From positions 1 to 32,000 of the forward strand of contig DAOVER010000004.1 in the NCBI GenBank assembly GCA_030668875.1: 32,000 bases of DNA. Direction: 5' to 3'. Under the pieces are notes generated by a model. It was not told where the DNA came from, did not search any database, and saw only the letters and a program-made list of their open reading frames with translations. Each line of letters begins with the position of its first letter. The first letter of the stretch is position 1. Positions 9,671 to 18,994 of this stretch are shown one piece after another. The position numbers and the translations under genes are program-made. The DNA is from Candidatus Heimdallarchaeota archaeon (GTDB lineage Archaea; Asgardarchaeota; Heimdallarchaeia; Heimdallarchaeales; Heimdallarchaeaceae).

Positions 9671-10255
9671 TTACCCACTTCTGTTAGTGCTATTTTTCAA
9701 CTTCTTGTTCAAAATTAGGATGAAAGGCCATCCAAAGGTGTAAATAAATAATTCAAATAACAACGAACCATTCTCTGGTGGTTTTCCTTTGAATCTACTT
9801 CTAAATGCTTCAACAGTGTTACCCAACAAATTACCCACGGTAACCATCTTGATAAACAAAATAATGTCATTTGCCTTTTGATTACTATATTGTTCAACAA
9901 GTTTATTCCATGCTTCATCAGTTGGATTTCCATTTGTTTCTGCATAGTGTTGTGCGAAAGAAAGAGCTATAATTTCTTCTGGATCACATGAACCAAAATC
10001 ATTTTCCATAATTTCGATAATTTCTTCTTCTGTACACCCAGAACTTAATGCAGTTTTAGTATGTGTCCATTCGCAATACATACAACCATAGACAGCAGTA
10101 ACAGCAAGCATAATCCTCTCTCTGAATTGTTCACTTATTCTACTGGATTTCATTACTTCTCGAATTTGAGAGGAGTTTTTCATTACTTTAAATCCATCAT
10201 GGAAGAAACTTCTGAAGCCATAGGTTCGTTTCTTGAAATATTGATTTGCTAGCAT
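9671..10255 (-). CDS. AhpD/carboxymuconolactone decarboxylase family protein
   Basis: RERIMLAVTAVYGCMYCEWTH (CxxC..H) core, ALSFAQHYAET, GNLLGNT, C-terminal hydrophobic helix. Confidence 0.85.
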   Translation of the reverse strand: MLANQYFKKRTYGFRSFFHDGFKVMKNSSQIREVMKSSRISEQFRERIMLAVTAVYGCMYCEWTHTKTALSSGCTEEEIIEIMENDFGSCDPEEIIALSFAQHYAETNGNPTDEAWNKLVEQYSNQKANDIILFIKMVTVGNLLGNTVEAFRSRFKGKPPENGSLLFELFIYTFGWPFILILNKKLKNSTNRSG

Positions 10256-10351: not shown

Positions 10352-11392
10352 CTATATTTCTGGAAAGTGGCATGCCACGAAGTGACCTGGTTCCAATTCA
10401 TCCAAAGTTGGTGTGACCTGAGAGCATATCTCTTGAGCTTTGTAACATCTTGGGTGGAAAGGACAACCAGAGGGAGGATTAATAGGACTGGGGACGTCAC
10501 CCTCAAGAATAATACGGTCCATCTTAATTCTGGGATCGGGGCGAGGGATAGCAGAGAGAAGAGAAACAGAATAAGGATGAGCAGTTTTCCTGAAAAGTTC
10601 ACCAGTAGGAGACATTTCCATAATCTTGCCAAGATACATGACAGCAACACGATCAGATACGTGTTTAATAACGCTCAAATCGTGTGCAATAAACATGTAA
10701 GTTAGATTAAATTCTACTTGCAAATCATGAAGAAGGTTAAGTATCTGAGCTTGAACTGAGACATCAAGTGCTGAAACTGGTTCATCCAGTAAAACTACTT
10801 CAGGATGGATAGCTAAAGCTCTTGCAATACCAATCCTCTGCCTTTGACCTCCACTAAATTCGTGAGGATAACGCAAAGCATGGTAATCTTCTAATCCTAC
10901 TTTTGTAAGAATTTCAAGAACTCTGGATTCCTTTTCCTCATAGGTCATATCAGGGAAATGTATGTCAAACGGTTCTTTGATAAGATCAAGGACCATTCTT
11001 CTTGGATTCAAGCTGGAATAAGGATCTTGGAAAACCATTTGTAATTGACGTTTAATCGCTAATTCTTCTTCTCTTGTCATTGGTTGGAAAATATCTATGC
11101 CTTTAAAGTAAATAGAACCTTCAGTGGGTTCCTCAAGTTTAACAGTAACTCTAGCAGTGGTGCTTTTTCCACAACCAGATTCACCTACAAGACCAAGAGT
11201 CTCTCCTTTGTTCAAAAAGAGATTAACTCCATCAACAGCTTTAATTTGAGCAACAACTCTGGAAAAGAGAATAGATTGTTCGCTAATGGGGAACCATTTC
11301 TTCAAATTGATGAGATTGATAATCGGATCGGTTTTAGGGTTCCACCCAGAAAACAAATCTATTACTTCATATTCTTCAAAAGTACTTACCAT
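10352..11392 (-). CDS. oppF: Oligopeptide/dipeptide ABC transporter ATP-binding subunit (OppF/DppF)
   Basis: GESGCGKST Walker A, QMVFQDP, FSGGQRQR, LLDEP, IAHDL, C-terminal HPY and GCPFHPRC motifs. Confidence 0.95.
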   Translation of the reverse strand: MVSTFEEYEVIDLFSGWNPKTDPIINLINLKKWFPISEQSILFSRVVAQIKAVDGVNLFLNKGETLGLVGESGCGKSTTARVTVKLEEPTEGSIYFKGIDIFQPMTREEELAIKRQLQMVFQDPYSSLNPRRMVLDLIKEPFDIHFPDMTYEEKESRVLEILTKVGLEDYHALRYPHEFSGGQRQRIGIARALAIHPEVVLLDEPVSALDVSVQAQILNLLHDLQVEFNLTYMFIAHDLSVIKHVSDRVAVMYLGKIMEMSPTGELFRKTAHPYSVSLLSAIPRPDPRIKMDRIILEGDVPSPINPPSGCPFHPRCYKAQEICSQVTPTLDELEPGHFVACHFPEI

Positions 11393-11397
11393 CTTAA

Positions 11398-12438
11398 TTA
11401 GGTCTCCTCTTTAATACTTGTTCTTTCTTTCATAGTAGAGTCATCAACGTGTAAATCTAATTCCTCAAAGTGGTGACATTGAACACGACGACCTTTTTGT
11501 TTGTCGATAATAACATCAGGAGGACGCTCACGCATACAGATTTCAGTAGCGAATTTACAACGAGGATGAAAACGACAACCCTTGGGAGGATTGATAAGTC
11601 TAGGAACAAGACCAGGAATAGTAGCAAGACGATGCTTGTCCTTTTCGAGACTGGGGATAGAATCGAAAAGAGCACGAGTGTAAGGGTGTTTAGGATCAAT
11701 GAAAATGTCCTCAGTAGGACCGGACTCAACGACACGACCACCATAAAAGATGTGAACACGTTTAGTGGTTTCGGCGACAACACCAAGGTTGTGGGTGATG
11801 AGCATCATAGCAAGGCCGTGCTTCTTCTGCATCTCCTTGATGAGTTCGAGGATTTGAGCCTGAATAGTAACATCCAAAGCTGTTGTTGGTTCGTCGGCTA
11901 TTAGAAGGCTTGGTTGGAGTGCTAGAGCCCTCGCTATGAAAATTCTTTGTCTTTGTCCTCCACTGAATTGATGTGGGTAATCTTTTATTCTTGCTGCTGC
12001 GTCTGCTATTCCTACTTGTTCCAATGCTTCTAATGCATACTCCAGTGCTTCCCTTCTACTACAGTTTCTATGTAGCGCTATTACTTCTGTCATTTGGTCG
12101 TCTATTTTGAATATTGGATTTAGACTTGTCATTGGGTCTTGGAATATCATTGCTATTTCCTTTCCCCTTATTTTTCTCATTTGCAAATCTGGTAGTTCTA
12201 GTAAATCTACTCCTTTGTAGATTATTTTTCCTGCAACTGTCTTACCGTTTTTATCAAGAATTCTCAGGGTTGATTTCGCTGTTACTGTCTTTCCACAACC
12301 TGATTCTCCTACAATTCCTACGGGTTCTCCTTGATATACATCAAAAGATACCCCATCTAGTGCTTCTACCACTCCCGATTCGGTATAAAAGTAAGTATAG
12401 ATATCTTGTACGTCTAGTATTGTCTTTGCCATTTTCAT
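11398..12438 (-). CDS. oppD: Oligopeptide/dipeptide ABC transporter ATP-binding subunit (OppD/DppD)
   Basis: GESGCGKT, MIFQDPMTSLNP, FSGGQRQR, IADEPTTALDV, ITHNL, HPYT, GCRFHPRC. Confidence 0.95.
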   Translation of the reverse strand: MKMAKTILDVQDIYTYFYTESGVVEALDGVSFDVYQGEPVGIVGESGCGKTVTAKSTLRILDKNGKTVAGKIIYKGVDLLELPDLQMRKIRGKEIAMIFQDPMTSLNPIFKIDDQMTEVIALHRNCSRREALEYALEALEQVGIADAAARIKDYPHQFSGGQRQRIFIARALALQPSLLIADEPTTALDVTIQAQILELIKEMQKKHGLAMMLITHNLGVVAETTKRVHIFYGGRVVESGPTEDIFIDPKHPYTRALFDSIPSLEKDKHRLATIPGLVPRLINPPKGCRFHPRCKFATEICMRERPPDVIIDKQKGRRVQCHHFEELDLHVDDSTMKERTSIKEET

Positions 12439-13536
12439 CTACTCTCTCAATCTTGGATCTAGTGCATCCCTTAATGCGTCTCCTAGTAAGTTGAACGCTA
12501 ATACTACAAAGAATATCGCAAAACCTGGTAGTAATGCTAATTCTGGATTCGTTTTCAGCACTGTTTGTGCATCATTTACCATCTGTCCCCACGATATTGT
12601 CGTCGGACTTCCTAAACCAAGAAATGTTAACCCTGCTTCTGCCAAGATTCCCCCCGCAATATTTAGTGTTGCAATTACAATTATTGGTGCTAAAATATTT
12701 GGTATAATGTGCACCATAATTATTCTCCGATTACTTGCACCAAGTACTCTTGCAGCATTTACATAATCTAGGTTATAGATTTGTTTCGTATTTGCATTTA
12801 CAAGTCTCGTTAGACCTGCCCATCCAAATATTCCCAATACGACAATAATAACTACTGACTGTGGTATTTGACGAAGGAATACTAATCTTCCTCTTCGGAT
12901 GAAAGATACAGCAAGGATTGCTATAACTAAAAAGGGTAGTGCGAGGAACATATCTGTGATTCTCATGATAACTTCTTCTGTCCATCCTCTATAATATCCT
13001 GCTAATGCTCCCAAGGTAACTCCTATAACTACTGATAGGACACTTGAAAATAAACCTACAGTTAGAGATACTTCACTGCCTGCCAATAGTCTTGAGAATT
13101 CATCTCTACCTAAAATATCTGTTCCACCTGGGTACTTAAGATTAGGATTTGAAAGAGATCCTCCTCCATTCCATGCATCAAATAAGGGTGTTGTTCCTAT
13201 TGGGCTATATGGCATTAAGAGTGGGTAGAAAATAGCTAATAGAATTACGCTTACCACTAAAATAGCTGATAACATAGCAATTCTATTTTTCTTGTATCTT
13301 CTCCAGACTAATGACCATTGAGAAGGACTTCTTTCTCTCAATGTTCCGTCCTTAGCTATAATTACCGTATCTTTTCCGGTAACTAACTGTGTTAGTTTCT
13401 TGAAGAAATTAGCAACGGCAATATATATACAGGCAATAAAACCAGCCCAAATCATAGATCTTGGTAGCCTCTTTTCTATCATGTATTTGTCCAAAGTTTC
13501 TCTGAATTTTTGTCTTTGTGTTTCTACTTTTTGCAT
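12439..13536 (-). CDS. oppC: Oligopeptide ABC transporter permease (OppC/DppC) with N-terminal extension
   Basis: GTDILGRD, SL.VG, YVNAARVLGAS (EAA loop), HIIPN, EAGLTFLGLG, SWG.M, LGDALRDALDPR. Confidence 0.95.
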   Translation of the reverse strand: MQKVETQRQKFRETLDKYMIEKRLPRSMIWAGFIACIYIAVANFFKKLTQLVTGKDTVIIAKDGTLRERSPSQWSLVWRRYKKNRIAMLSAILVVSVILLAIFYPLLMPYSPIGTTPLFDAWNGGGSLSNPNLKYPGGTDILGRDEFSRLLAGSEVSLTVGLFSSVLSVVIGVTLGALAGYYRGWTEEVIMRITDMFLALPFLVIAILAVSFIRRGRLVFLRQIPQSVVIIVVLGIFGWAGLTRLVNANTKQIYNLDYVNAARVLGASNRRIIMVHIIPNILAPIIVIATLNIAGGILAEAGLTFLGLGSPTTISWGQMVNDAQTVLKTNPELALLPGFAIFFVVLAFNLLGDALRDALDPRLRE

Positions 13537-13554
13537 TTTTTGACCACCTAATTT

Positions 13555-16167
13555 CTACAATTCAATTCTTGGATCTACCGCCACATAGATTATATCCGTC
13601 ACTAGATTCCCTAATAGAATCAGTATCGTCAGTATTGCTACCGTGCCAAGTATCATCGGGAAGTCGAGAAGACCGATAGCCGATACATATTTGAATCCTA
13701 GTCCTGGCCATGTGAAGAGTGTTTCTGTAATTGGAGCTCCAGCTAATGCTGTAGCTAGGAACAATCCTACGTAGGTAACAACTGGAATCAATGTGTTTCT
13801 AAAGGCATGTTTCCATGTAATGATTCTCTCAGAAATACCATTAGCTCTTGCTGCTAAAATATAGTCTTGTCTTAATACCTCTAACATAGTTGATCTTACT
13901 AATCTTGAATATATTGCCATGAAATTGAACAGCAAAGTAACTGTTGGAAGGACCATGTGAATGAGAGAGTCACCTAACCTTAACGTTACATTTCCCCACC
14001 ACGTTACCCATTCGCCGCCCCAGAATAAGTCCCAATTCACACCACTGAATACTGGTGTTGGTGCGGGTATTCTATGAGCTTTTGCTGCTGGGAACCACCC
14101 TAATCCATAACCACTAAAGATGTAGATTAGAACTAGACCAAAGACGAATATTGGCATTGATTGTCCCAATAATGCAAGAGAGCTTGACATTGAGTCAACC
14201 CATGTATTATGGTTCTTAGCTGCTAAAACTCCTAATGGAATGGAAACCATTAATGATAATACAAACGCTAATAATTGTAGTTTTAGTGTTTCCCAGACTA
14301 ATCCACCGATCATGTCATTTATTGCTTGACCTGATTGGAAACTGGTTCCCATGTCTCCATGTAAGAGATTATAGAACCACATAATGAACTGTACATAGAT
14401 TGGTTGATCTAGCCCTAATTTCCGCGTTAGATTTATTCGATCTTGTTCTGTTGTTCTTTGTTTACCAAGTAACAATAAGGCTACTGGGTCACCTAAACCA
14501 CTTACCATCACAAACGTTAGAACACAAACTGCAATGAATAGGGGAATAAGAGTCAATAAACGCCGGGTAATATATGTTGTTAAACGCAAATTAGCAACAT
14601 TTTTTATCCATTTGAATATGCTTGTTTCTCCCATTTTTCTAACTTTTTCAGAACTAATTGGTTTTTGCCAGTTAACAGGCAAAAATATTCCTGTTATAAG
14701 CACTATTATTCCGATTGTAAAAATATAGAAACCAGCACCTATGAAACCGTTTAATTCAATATTAAAGAAGGATGGAGAACTGTCATTCGGATTAAATGTT
14801 ATTGGTGTAACTGATAATGCTGTTTGACCATCAACTACTGCTACGTAGGTTTCTGCAGCAATATACAGTGATCGGTTCATCGCAATTATCGCCGCAATCA
14901 GTCCACTAAGCAATAATATTACTGCAACAATATCCGCAGCTAAACCTTTTGACTTAAAACCTCCACTTTGGAAGACTTGACCTAAGCCTGCAAATAACAA
15001 TGCAAACACTAGTAAGAACCAGATAACTGCAGATAGAATCACAATACTGGCAGGAACTTCTCCACTAATAAGTTGAGCATCTGCAGAATATCCTGTAGAA
15101 TTATAAGTAAGGGTTCTATATTGAATACTGAAACCCATAACTTGAACAAGATTCCCTCCAGTATCGTTGTTTATCCTTGGTCTTACTTGGAATATTAATA
15201 ATCCTGTGCTATCATCTACAATGTAGGCGTGCTCATTAACGATGTAAATGCTATTGGGTACTCCTTCTATATCATATGATGCTTCAAGTACAGGATCTGT
15301 TGGATCCTCTACAACAATAATCTGTAATCCTGTTTCTGCGTCAATAACATACGCAAATCCATTTTCAACAAATATGCCTTTACCATCACCAGCTAAATCA
15401 TAACTACCCATCAAAACTGGGTCAGTTACATCTGTTACATTTAGTATTGTTAAACCAAAACCTTCGCCTACAATGAAAGCATATCCTCCTTGTATGACGA
15501 AATCATTTGCAATACCATTTGTATTATAACTTCCTTCTAGTGTTGGATTTGTTATATTTGATATGTTCAATATTAATAGACCACTTGTCTCATCCAGAAT
15601 AAACGCATAATCCCCATGAATGAAAACATCTTGTGCTATACCGGTTGTTTCGTAACTTCCTTCTAGTGTTGGATTTGTTACATCTGTCACATTCAAAATT
15701 GTTAGTCCTGTATCGGCATCTGTAACGTATGCATAACCATCTTTTACGTATACTTCATTACCTCCTCCTGTGAGATTGTAATATCCTGCCAATGTTGGAC
15801 TTGATGCTATAGTAACATTCACAATCAATAATCCGGTAATTGAGTCTGTTACATAGGCGTACCCATCTTCAACATGTACTCCTTTGCTGTCTCCTGCAGT
15901 AGTATATGTCCCTGTCAGACTAGGGGAAGTTGGGTTGGATGCGTTAAAAACAAGCATTCCTGCATTCACATCAGCTACATAAATCATACCGTTTTTATAA
16001 AAAACATCATTTGCTCCGCCCGCAATACTGTAGTGAGACGAGGCAATTATTGGTTCTGGTTCTATAGTTGTTGAATCAAATGAAATATGATATAACGGTA
16101 CAAAGGCTGCCGTAAATAATAGGATAGCTCCGACAACTTTAAGTGAAATAGCTACACTTTTATCCAT
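13555..16167 (-). CDS. oppB: OppB/DppB permease fused to an N-terminal four-TM module containing a seven-bladed LVIVD beta-propeller
   Basis: C-terminal ~345 aa: YITRRLL, PGDP-like LGDP, LGLDQP..VQF, GDMGTS, MLEVLRQDYILAARANG, HAFRN, ETLFTWPGLG, DPRI; aa ~43-328 contain seven ~42-aa repeats. Confidence 0.92.
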   Translation of the reverse strand: MDKSVAISLKVVGAILLFTAAFVPLYHISFDSTTIEPEPIIASSHYSIAGGANDVFYKNGMIYVADVNAGMLVFNASNPTSPSLTGTYTTAGDSKGVHVEDGYAYVTDSITGLLIVNVTIASSPTLAGYYNLTGGGNEVYVKDGYAYVTDADTGLTILNVTDVTNPTLEGSYETTGIAQDVFIHGDYAFILDETSGLLILNISNITNPTLEGSYNTNGIANDFVIQGGYAFIVGEGFGLTILNVTDVTDPVLMGSYDLAGDGKGIFVENGFAYVIDAETGLQIIVVEDPTDPVLEASYDIEGVPNSIYIVNEHAYIVDDSTGLLIFQVRPRINNDTGGNLVQVMGFSIQYRTLTYNSTGYSADAQLISGEVPASIVILSAVIWFLLVFALLFAGLGQVFQSGGFKSKGLAADIVAVILLLSGLIAAIIAMNRSLYIAAETYVAVVDGQTALSVTPITFNPNDSSPSFFNIELNGFIGAGFYIFTIGIIVLITGIFLPVNWQKPISSEKVRKMGETSIFKWIKNVANLRLTTYITRRLLTLIPLFIAVCVLTFVMVSGLGDPVALLLLGKQRTTEQDRINLTRKLGLDQPIYVQFIMWFYNLLHGDMGTSFQSGQAINDMIGGLVWETLKLQLLAFVLSLMVSIPLGVLAAKNHNTWVDSMSSSLALLGQSMPIFVFGLVLIYIFSGYGLGWFPAAKAHRIPAPTPVFSGVNWDLFWGGEWVTWWGNVTLRLGDSLIHMVLPTVTLLFNFMAIYSRLVRSTMLEVLRQDYILAARANGISERIITWKHAFRNTLIPVVTYVGLFLATALAGAPITETLFTWPGLGFKYVSAIGLLDFPMILGTVAILTILILLGNLVTDIIYVAVDPRIEL
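15184..16040 (-). repeat. Seven LVIVD-type coding repeats (~126 bp period), including a 28-bp exact direct repeat at 15527-15554 and 15653-15680
   Basis: Repeat consensus G.a.dV.v.ggYAyv.d...GL.IlNvtd.tnP.L.GsY; TAACTTCCTTCTAGTGTTGGATTTGTTA occurs twice 126 bp apart. Confidence 0.9.
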
Positions 16168-16229
16168 AATGAATCACTCGAGTGTGTATGAACAGATTAC
16201 CTATTCGTTGTTTAACTCTCACTGAAGTT

Positions 16230-16244
16230 TTTATAAATGTTGTC
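16230..16244 (-). promoter_or_regulatory. BRE-TATA promoter of the opp operon
   Basis: Minus strand GACAACA-TTTATAAA, 63 nt before ATG 16167; GAGTGA SD-like site near the start. Confidence 0.5.
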
Positions 16245-16463
16245 GCAATTTAGATGAATCAATACAACCATTAGAATAAATTTTGTAGAAGAATGAAAAT
16301 AAATATCTTTAGACAATGCTATTTTAAGTCTTGAGTCAATGAGACAGAAAAGTTCAATGTTTTTATTTAAACAAAAGATAATTTATTGCAAAAAAATTAT
16401 TTTTTGATTCATCATCAAAAATGAGCAGATTTTAACGAACTATCTGAAGTAGATTGCTAACAA

Positions 16464-16515: not shown

Positions 16516-16593
16516 GGGGTGGTGATCTAGCTCGGTTATGATATCTCCTTGACGTGGAGAAAGTCGGCGGTTCGAATCCGCCCCACCCCACCA
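16516..16593 (+). tRNA. trnV: tRNA-Val (GAC), CCA encoded
   Basis: Acceptor GGGGTGG/CCACCCC, D arm ATCT..TGAT of archaeal Val type, anticodon arm TCTCC-TTGACGT-GGAGA, T arm GGCGG-TTCGAAT-CCGCC, A73, CCA. Confidence 0.96.
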
Positions 16594-18400: not shown

Positions 18401-18994
18401 ATGACTAACTTCATCCAACGAACATCTCAGACTATTCGCAGAAAGCTTGGCTATCCTGAAACATCGCTATTGGTTATGGGAAACAATCTTCCCGCGACAC
18501 GTAACCGTGTTTTGCTTATGCGCTCTAATACTTCTTTAAATGAATTTATCATTGACAGCTGTTTGAATGAGCTTCCATATACTGAAAAACTAAAGTTCAA
18601 ACCTAAACAATTTATCCCTTTCGAAGGTATTCTCTATCTTATAGATGCAACGAAAGAAGAAATGATTAAACATGAACGCAACTATTTCTGGGAAAAAATT
18701 ATTTGGGATGAGGAAGTAGAAGATCTTCCTATAGCTGTCTGCGCTTACAACACTGATTTACAAGGAGCTTTGACTAGAGGAGAATTAATAGAAAACATGT
18801 CTCTCATACGCTTAACAGATCGTATATGGAACCTTTTTGAGGTTCCAGATGTGGATTCATTAATTGAATCTCTAAAATGGATGAAAAAGGTAATCCATAT
18901 GGGTTACATAAAACCTTGGGTAGAAAAAGAAAAATTGTTAGAAAAAATACAACCTATTAAGGTTCAATTTCCTTCAGAAGAAGAAAATAATTAA
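18401..18994 (+). CDS. Arf/Sar-like small GTPase-fold protein with degenerate nucleotide-binding motifs
   Basis: C-terminal half aligns by eye to the Arf family (GILYLIDAT, DLPIAVCAYNTDLQGALTRGEL, LTDRIWNLFEV, SLIESLKWM); P-loop reads GNNLPATR, no DxxG, G4 reads YNTD. Confidence 0.7.
   Translation: MTNFIQRTSQTIRRKLGYPETSLLVMGNNLPATRNRVLLMRSNTSLNEFIIDSCLNELPYTEKLKFKPKQFIPFEGILYLIDATKEEMIKHERNYFWEKIIWDEEVEDLPIAVCAYNTDLQGALTRGELIENMSLIRLTDRIWNLFEVPDVDSLIESLKWMKKVIHMGYIKPWVEKEKLLEKIQPIKVQFPSEEENN

Follow-up and report, generated by a model that had tools for sequence, protein, structure and literature searches.

An optional LVIVD propeller in the OppB permease of Heimdallarchaeaceae, and the question of the missing binding protein

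Introduction

Importers of the type-I Opp/Dpp family need a solute-binding protein (SBP), and the permeases of ABC importers rarely carry large ectodomains of any other kind. It is puzzling to find an operon of this family that encodes no OppA and whose OppB permease carries a beta-propeller. Such an operon lies in the stretch of DNA analysed here (positions 1 to 32,000 of the forward strand of contig DAOVER010000004.1, assembly GCA_030668875.1, Candidatus Heimdallarchaeota archaeon; hereafter the window, 32,000 nucleotides in length), where the oppB gene at 13555-16167(-) includes seven LVIVD repeats. What does this propeller do on a permease, and could it be the binding protein that the operon lacks? 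An earlier note, made from the sequence alone, had proposed that the propeller is a tethered capture, adhesion or sensing domain, or a scaffold for an OppA encoded elsewhere.

We find that the data argue strongly against a propeller that stands in for OppA, and this corrects a reading that is tempting but wrong. The fusion itself is genuine, and it belongs to a presence-absence series among sister species in which the transporter persists with or without its propeller. This series, the recurrence of the propeller on two permease families and the tetraspan-like orphan module on which it is mounted are what make the locus of interest.

A propeller inside a permease gene

The gene is a single ATG-started frame of 870 codons with no stops. 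Its product begins with one transmembrane (TM) helix, continues with seven LVIVD blades and three further TM helices, and ends in a complete OppB. Its parts are as follows.

16108-16161 (-): TM1 (residues 3-20) of a four-TM module; a helix in the AlphaFold2 (AF2) model, with an N-terminus conserved in the 870-aa and 585-aa forms
15178-16062 (-): seven-bladed LVIVD propeller (residues 36-330), between strands 1 and 2 of outer loop 1; from Pfam, AF2 and matches in the AlphaFold Database (AFDB)
15052-15177 (-): remainder of outer loop 1 (residues 331-372), with three juxtamembrane pedestal strands (AF2 strands 336-344, 348-356 and 361-366)
14683-15051 (-): residues 373-495, from TM2 through a long TM3 to TM4, with a beta strand and the conserved TFNPND motif in outer loop 2
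14581-14682 (-): Lys/Arg-rich, predicted cytoplasmic linker (residues 496-529) from the N-terminal module to OppB; read from sequence, with low pLDDT at 505-522
13558-14580 (-): complete OppB/DppB-type permease core (residues 530-870) with an EAA-type coupling loop

That the ectodomain is an LVIVD beta-propeller is evident both from its repeats, which score above the Pfam threshold (PF08309; E = 8e-43; 143.9 bits against a cut-off of 20.2; six scored stretches), and from its closed predicted fold. Seven 42-aa repeats run in register through residues 36-330, and the AF2 model (built on a 51-sequence alignment) folds them into 28 strands that form seven four-stranded blades with pLDDT above 90. 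LVIVD proteins in AFDB match the propeller model with a TM score of 0.85 (by hit) and an rmsd of 1.1 over 290 residues, at 24-32% identity. The model also places helices at residues 3-20, 373-401, 405-439 and 478-495 ahead of an ordinary OppB core, in which Pfam recognizes BPD_transp_1_N (residues 531-609) and BPD_transp_1 (643-869); the pTM of the whole-protein model is 0.46.

Seven N-X-S/T sequons lie within the propeller (N75, 117, 131, 159, 201, 204 and 243), where they fall repeatedly on the same position of the LVIVD repeat. Three more (334, 356 and 461) are in the two outer loops of the N-terminal module, and none occurs outside the predicted outer loops. With Lys and Arg abundant in the inner loops and in the 496-529 linker, and with the sequons confined to outer loops, the sequence indicates an N-in topology with an extracellular propeller, which agrees with the orientation that the first TM helix of OppB requires. 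Thus, the uninterrupted frame with its TM helices, repeats, sequons and permease, and the extracellular position of the propeller, are as the earlier note had described them.

The source is a metagenome-assembled genome, where misjoins occur, and it must be asked whether an assembly or frameshift error joined a surface-protein gene to oppB. No evidence for such an event was found, and its probability is negligible. The names of homologues place the source organism in Candidatus Heimdallarchaeaceae. The same full-length frame (868-873 aa) is present in 14 of 30 species genomes of this family, namely this one and 13 others, all of one genus. Four data sources (NCBI, JGI, ENA and the Logan assemblies) add about 15 protein clusters with this architecture, at 60-93% identity, and these occurrences in other genomes and clusters provide independent support. 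Logan contigs from four runs of one study span positions 13400-16400, including all of the domain junctions, with no indels and no joints; these contigs may be the source data, and hence demonstrate continuity rather than provide independent support. They reveal neither an indel nor a joint around 14600-15200, the interval for which the earlier note had asked for read support. Furthermore, the sequences that border the propeller, N-terminally and C-terminally, belong to one and the same conserved module. An assembly artefact is excluded.

Relatives without the propeller and the missing binding protein

Twelve genomes of the family (eight from the genus of the fusion, four from two further genera) encode OppB orthologues of 567-601 aa that have no propeller. 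These proteins align with the 870-aa form from residue 1 through TM1, omit exactly the propeller, and realign in the strands that follow. In a model of one of them, loop 1 between TM1 and TM2 holds four to five strands, and loop 2 between a long TM3 and TM4 holds further ones; the whole is predicted to form a four-helix bundle with a small beta-sheet cap. The strands of this pedestal are common to both forms, and in the AF2 model of the 870-aa form the propeller sits between the first and second strands of the pedestal sheet. TM1 and the three extra TM helices make up a conserved, lineage-specific module that is older and more widespread than the propeller, a point that the earlier note had missed. 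Its outer loop 2 carries a near-invariant TFNPND motif. No relatives of the module outside the orthologue family were found when 1.84 billion representative proteins were searched by sequence, which returned only family members and fragments, and an ESM Atlas feature search with residues 331-530 gave scores of 0.78-0.80, at chance level only.

The propeller-less orthologues occupy the same genomic setting, in which NUDIX and PALP genes precede oppB-oppC-oppD-oppF and no SBP gene is part of the operon; downstream CMD and 2-Hacid_dh genes were seen at such loci in L023/L024. The absence of oppA from the operon, as reported in the earlier note, extends to the entire contig of the fusion (C38, 105,506 bp), on which a search of the whole length for SBP_bac_5 gave no matches. 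Three relatives that carry an orthologue (G005, G022 and G001) have many SBP_bac_5 matches but none near the orthologue: in the single-contig genome G005 the nearest lies about 276 kb from it, and in G022 and G001 none shares its contig. Because the propeller-less orthologues sit in the same SBP-less operon, the lack of a binding-protein gene is a conserved trait of the orthologue group that is independent of the propeller. A more distant OppB type in the family adjoins an SBP gene (including on contig C2 of G022).

These findings bear directly on the proposal that the propeller is a tethered substrate-capture domain in place of OppA. In its favour, operon and contig are devoid of an SBP gene, and the ectodomain is covalently attached to the permease in the manner of the substrate-binding domains (SBDs) of GlnPQ and OpuA (PMC8025302). 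However, the transporters that have no propeller are equally without an SBP, and the propeller seems to have been lost at least five times while the transporter stayed under strong constraint. The propeller has no conserved pocket or patch, and its fold is unrelated to that of class-5 SBPs. Moreover, the second LVIVD-permease fusion of this genome, described below, has an SBP of its own. The 870-aa protein has no match to an SBP family at E <= 0.01 in Pfam, and its ectodomain is all-beta, without the bilobed SBP fold. We consider replacement of OppA by the propeller highly improbable, and the connection that the earlier note drew between propeller and missing SBP is not upheld by the 12 propeller-less relatives or by the second fusion.

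Where, then, might the substrate be delivered from? About 17 SBP_bac_5 genes are found elsewhere in the genome, on 12 contigs, and none shares a contig with an Opp permease. This outcome of the genome search suggested in the earlier note counts against replacement and leaves the fusion untouched. Complete Opp translocators number only two, the fusion operon and one on contig C52, in addition to a lone OppB on contig C29, and all of these counts are from a draft genome that is 92% complete. Given this surplus of orphan SBPs over translocators, unlinked SBPs that are shared between the translocators would be the simplest reading. There is a precedent in E. coli, where the orphan MppA works through OppBCDF (PMC3173086).

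Examples of these orphan family-5 SBP genes are located at C26:8012-9778(-), C22:49518-51224(-), C53:19789-21531(+) and C19:26224-27990(+). In several orphan SBPs the Pfam block 287-356 lies N-terminal to the block 28-285 within one frame of 645-690 aa, an order also present in relatives G022, G001 and G005, and one that suggests circular permutation. Two 600-aa proteins encoded upstream of the fusion in locus L021 were considered as divergent SBPs and rejected, as they are membrane acyltransferases of the HGSNAT_cat-like type.

An alternative would be that the system needs no SBP, either because the four-TM module and its pedestal, whether or not they carry the propeller, act as a receptor or gate within the transporter itself, or because the system is an exporter. 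This would fit an SBP-less operon that is conserved over three genera while the more distant OppB type of the same family retains a nearby SBP, and it would fit the near-invariance of TFNPND and the lack of relatives of the module elsewhere. Against it, the OppB, OppC, OppD and OppF parts are all ordinary, type-I importers of the Opp family are generally known to need an SBP, and the large surplus of orphan family-5 SBPs is in need of a translocator. On balance, we regard a system that works without any SBP as unlikely.

The predicted fold of the module invites another conjecture. Structure searches with the whole model point to a likeness to the tetraspan fold of claudin, PMP22, TARP and MP20 proteins (for example, 3x29_C, 4p79_A, 9cbv_A and 9s41_J). 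If the module were a true archaeal tetraspan of the claudin/TARP type, it might be a built-in auxiliary subunit whose variable glycosylated propeller contacts partner cells or polymers and so places peptide uptake at sites of contact. Zones of membrane contact and uptake organised by tetraspans would then have a precursor-like example in an Asgard archaeon. However, unlike the claudins, the module does not stand alone but is part of a transporter protein. It has no sequence similarity to them and no match to Pfam PMP22_Claudin or Claudin_2, and it lacks the Cys pair and the W-GLW-C-C signature, as the portion of loop 1 outside the propeller contains neither Trp nor Cys. We judge this conjecture to be very unlikely.

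Gain, loss and selection

On a maximum-likelihood tree built from the shared region (residues 340-870), the outgroup genera are propeller-less, and within the genus both forms are interspersed across three well-supported clades. Counted by hand on this tree, the distribution calls for four gains, or for one gain and five to six losses. We nonetheless favour a single gain followed by repeated in-frame loss, because the OppB propellers share one insertion point, align over about 296 columns with almost no gaps, and are mutual best matches ahead of every other LVIVD protein retrieved, all of which suggests common descent. Exchange of alleles by recombination within the genus may be an alternative history.

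The propeller has diverged quickly. Between propeller-bearing clades its sequence identity is 36-40%, compared with 51-56% for the pedestal and TM2-4 and 81-84% for the OppB core, and the only positions invariant across clades are those of the repeat scaffold. The dN/dS values of four closely related species are 0.16-0.23 in the propeller, against 0.03-0.07 in the core. The propeller is thus kept by purifying selection wherever it is present, under a constraint three- to five-fold weaker than that on the core, and its rate of evolution is about four times that of the core.

Other LVIVD proteins of the same genome

The propeller of OppB is not the only one of its kind on a permease. A second fusion of 982 aa is encoded at C36:83794-86742 (L026:3795-6743, +) and consists of TM1, an LVIVD propeller and a double BPD_transp_1 permease of the FbpB type. 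Directly upstream is a gene for an SBP of the SBP_bac_8/6/1 type (L026:2153-3634). This architecture is represented by about 50 clusters, all from Heimdallarchaeaceae where they are named, some of which bear generic labels from automatic annotation (Fe3+ permease or WtpB, for example), and it too has propeller-less relatives (610-666 aa). A 956-aa entry in AFDB aligns to the model of the 870-aa OppB over propeller and permease.

Both fusions carry an LVIVD propeller straight after TM1 of the permease of an SBP-dependent importer. The FbpB-type protein differs from the OppB fusion in that it belongs to another permease family, has two fused BPD_transp_1 domains, lacks the four-TM pedestal module and adjoins its cognate SBP gene, and its propeller is only about 28% identical to that of OppB.

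At least six LVIVD proteins are encoded in this genome: the two unrelated ABC permeases, a 1024-aa protein with two anchors, and three stand-alone proteins that are anchored or secreted. Thus, the LVIVD propeller is a reusable surface module in the Heimdallarchaeaceae lineage, and in one instance it coexists with a cognate SBP. The 1024-aa protein, encoded at C32:6096-9170 (L032:1097-4171, +), has hydrophobic anchors at both its N and C termini in addition to the LVIVD repeat, and its match to the CD36 family is below threshold (20.8 bits against a cut-off of 26.5).

It could be argued from this wide distribution that the propeller is a generic surface coat, shield or adhesion module, perhaps as part of a glycoprotein layer or for contact between cells or with particles, and that the membrane proteins merely anchor it. 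The presence of at least six LVIVD proteins on different scaffolds is in line with this, as are the recurrence of sequons at one repeat position, the fast divergence, the absence of a conserved surface patch and the repeated loss. But both of the verified permease fusions place the propeller after TM1 of a subunit of an SBP-dependent importer, which would be unexpected of random anchoring. Purifying selection at a dN/dS of about 0.2 shows that the propeller has a function and does not tell which one. We therefore hold a generic coat or adhesion module to be a real, if rather less probable, explanation.

Two further observations concern Opp permeases more broadly. In four genomes of the family, an OppB paralogue of ordinary length contains exactly one in-frame TAG (G020:C46:13088-14101; G010:C65:6216-7229; G011:C418:4006-5028; G001:C30:126485-127495), which could be a recoded codon or the sign of a recurrent pseudogene. 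In a distant relative of 1235 aa from a Logan assembly, OppB and OppC are fused to each other and, at the C-terminus, to an M28 peptidase domain, which is another instance of an Opp permease that bears an extracytoplasmic enzyme or ectodomain.

A proposed role for the propeller

The explanation we favour, with somewhat better than even confidence, is that the importer depends on SBPs and is supplied by orphan ones, and that the glycosylated ectodomain on OppB serves interactions and is dispensable. At its base would be a conventional type-I importer of the Opp/Dpp family (OppB*-OppC-OppD-OppF, with the asterisk denoting the fusion). Its OppB would have gained the lineage-specific four-helix module with the beta-sheet pedestal, predicted to adopt a claudin/TARP-like fold, and in one genus an N-glycosylated propeller would then have entered the first strand-to-strand connection of the pedestal. 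Substrate would probably be delivered by some of the roughly 17 unlinked family-5 SBPs, which would be served by the two complete translocators. Least certain is the role of the propeller itself, which may be a dispensable platform for interaction with proteins or glycans beside the surface on which SBPs dock. There it would hold some partner at the cell surface near the translocator; this could be a membrane-anchored SBP or an exopeptidase, or else polymeric material or material from a partner cell. Its effect would be to tune uptake, not to make it possible. That the propeller might be a scaffold for an OppA from another locus, or an adhesion or sensing domain, as suggested earlier, is compatible with the data.

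Several points weigh against this proposal. The location of the propeller beside the SBP docking site is an assumption because a model with a pTM of 0.46 does not settle how the domains are arranged. Docking of orphan SBPs on the fusion translocator is inferred from gene counts in the incomplete draft genome. Parsimony of presence and absence, taken alone, favours four gains over one gain with five to six losses. LVIVD propellers are also found on several surface proteins of this genome that are not transporters, and the role of the propeller may therefore be unrelated to transport. Finally, no blade-specific conserved patch or pocket is visible across the clades, which argues against one fixed, conserved ligand.

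Even so, the natural presence and absence of the propeller among sister species provides a ready comparative system for the role of an accessory ectodomain, for which the candidates are recruitment of SBPs, tethering of substrates or partners, and shielding. That two unrelated importer permeases of Heimdallarchaeaceae bear an LVIVD propeller at an equivalent position adds to this value. The question also touches on the organisation of peptide uptake in an Asgard archaeon that has few translocators for its many orphan peptide-binding proteins.

The operon and its neighbours

The four transporter genes abut one another on one strand, and the content that the earlier note gave for the operon agrees with Pfam and NCBIfam. 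A tRNA-Val gene lies beyond it, as the note had stated. The features around the fusion gene are as follows.

12439-13536 (-): oppC (365 aa); Pfam OppC_N and BPD_transp_1; NCBIfam Opp4C, 274 bits
11398-12438 (-): oppD ATPase (346 aa), with an oligo_HPY C-terminal domain with four Cys; Pfam ABC_tran and oligo_HPY; NCBIfam OppD/DppD
10352-11392 (-): oppF ATPase (346 aa), with an oligo_HPY C-terminal domain with four Cys; Pfam ABC_tran and oligo_HPY; NCBIfam DppF/OppF
9671-10255 (-): CMD/AhpD-like protein (194 aa) with CxxC and a hydrophobic C-terminus; Pfam PF02627
16228-16237 (-): TATA-box-like TTTATAAAAA, a candidate archaeal promoter element about 60-70 nt 5' of the ATG, read from the sequence
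16516-16593 (+): tRNA-Val
18401-18994 (+): small GTPase of the Arf family, three genes upstream of the fusion

An OppB with an EAA loop, an OppC-type permease and two oligo_HPY ATPases in one operon identify the system as an importer of the Opp/Dpp/Nik type. Its substrate subfamily (peptide, nickel, opine or glutathione type) is not assignable, because every score of OppB, OppC, OppD and OppF against the NCBIfam equivalogs is below the cut-off, the best being Opp2B nickel with 263 bits against 350; the nickel, peptide and glutathione models score alike on the operon proteins.

Some individual features deserve mention. OppC is extended at its N-terminus by about 70 aa, including an extra hydrophobic segment ahead of the canonical OppC_N helix, and its orthologue in L021 is longer still (419 aa). 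Both ATPases (10352-12438) end in a four-Cys stretch in or after oligo_HPY; in mycobacterial OppD, this region reportedly holds a 4Fe-4S cluster. The CMD/AhpD-like gene is the fifth and last gene of the operon in those orthologous loci whose downstream side was read (L021 and L023/L024, the contig of L022 ending before its position), and in the loci of relatives a 2-hydroxyacid dehydrogenase gene (2-Hacid_dh) lies 3' of it. This fifth gene may hint at a thiol or redox-active substrate.

Upstream of the fusion, the TATA-like element and tRNA-Val are followed by PALP, NUDIX and Arf-family GTPase genes. The GTPase gene is syntenic in the loci of relatives (L022 and L023). Small GTPases of the Arf family are typical eukaryote-like signature proteins of Asgard archaea.

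Comparison with known systems

The earlier note did not recognise the architecture as described, and in agreement with this a literature search found no paper on an LVIVD-permease fusion. For LVIVD itself only the 2004 description of the repeat was found and no functional work, and the search for oligopeptide SBPs of Heimdallarchaeota returned nothing. The fusion proteins are already public in databases under generic names.

The closest known systems are E. coli DppBCDF/OppBCDF and M. tuberculosis OppABCD/DppABCD (PDB 8z1y, 8z1v, 8z21, 8j5q and 8wd9). Compared with these, the fusion OppB is longer at its N-terminus by about 530 residues, which make up the four TM helices, the pedestal and the propeller, and the Heimdallarchaeaceae operon has neither an SBP gene nor an assignable substrate class.

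As for the propeller, the LVIVD repeat (PF08309) was described computationally by Adindla et al. in 2004 (PMC2447325). The surface propellers of archaea and bacteria share with that of OppB the same 42-aa repeat and seven-bladed fold. However, the examples known so far are surface proteins without an assigned function, either stand-alone or multidomain, whereas OppB is a polytopic transporter subunit with the propeller inserted in one of its outer loops.

Ectodomains joined to type-I permeases are known in two other forms. In GlnPQ and OpuA, SBDs are fused N-terminally to the transmembrane domain (PMC8025302); these are true bilobed SBP folds that bind substrate, whereas the propeller of OppB matches no SBP family. 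In MalF of MalFGK2, as in the fusion OppB, a type-I permease has extra N-terminal helices and a large extracytoplasmic domain in an outer loop, and this P2 domain touches the maltose-binding protein (PMC6906923). There is no relation of sequence or fold between MalF and the N-terminal part of OppB, since 2r6g_F matches the core only, and P2 is an immunoglobulin-like, constitutive domain of about 180 aa in a different loop. Nevertheless, if the propeller is a docking platform, P2 would offer the best functional analogy for it, and the Heimdallarchaeaceae version would be a platform of 295 aa, mounted on a claudin-like pedestal and optional among species.

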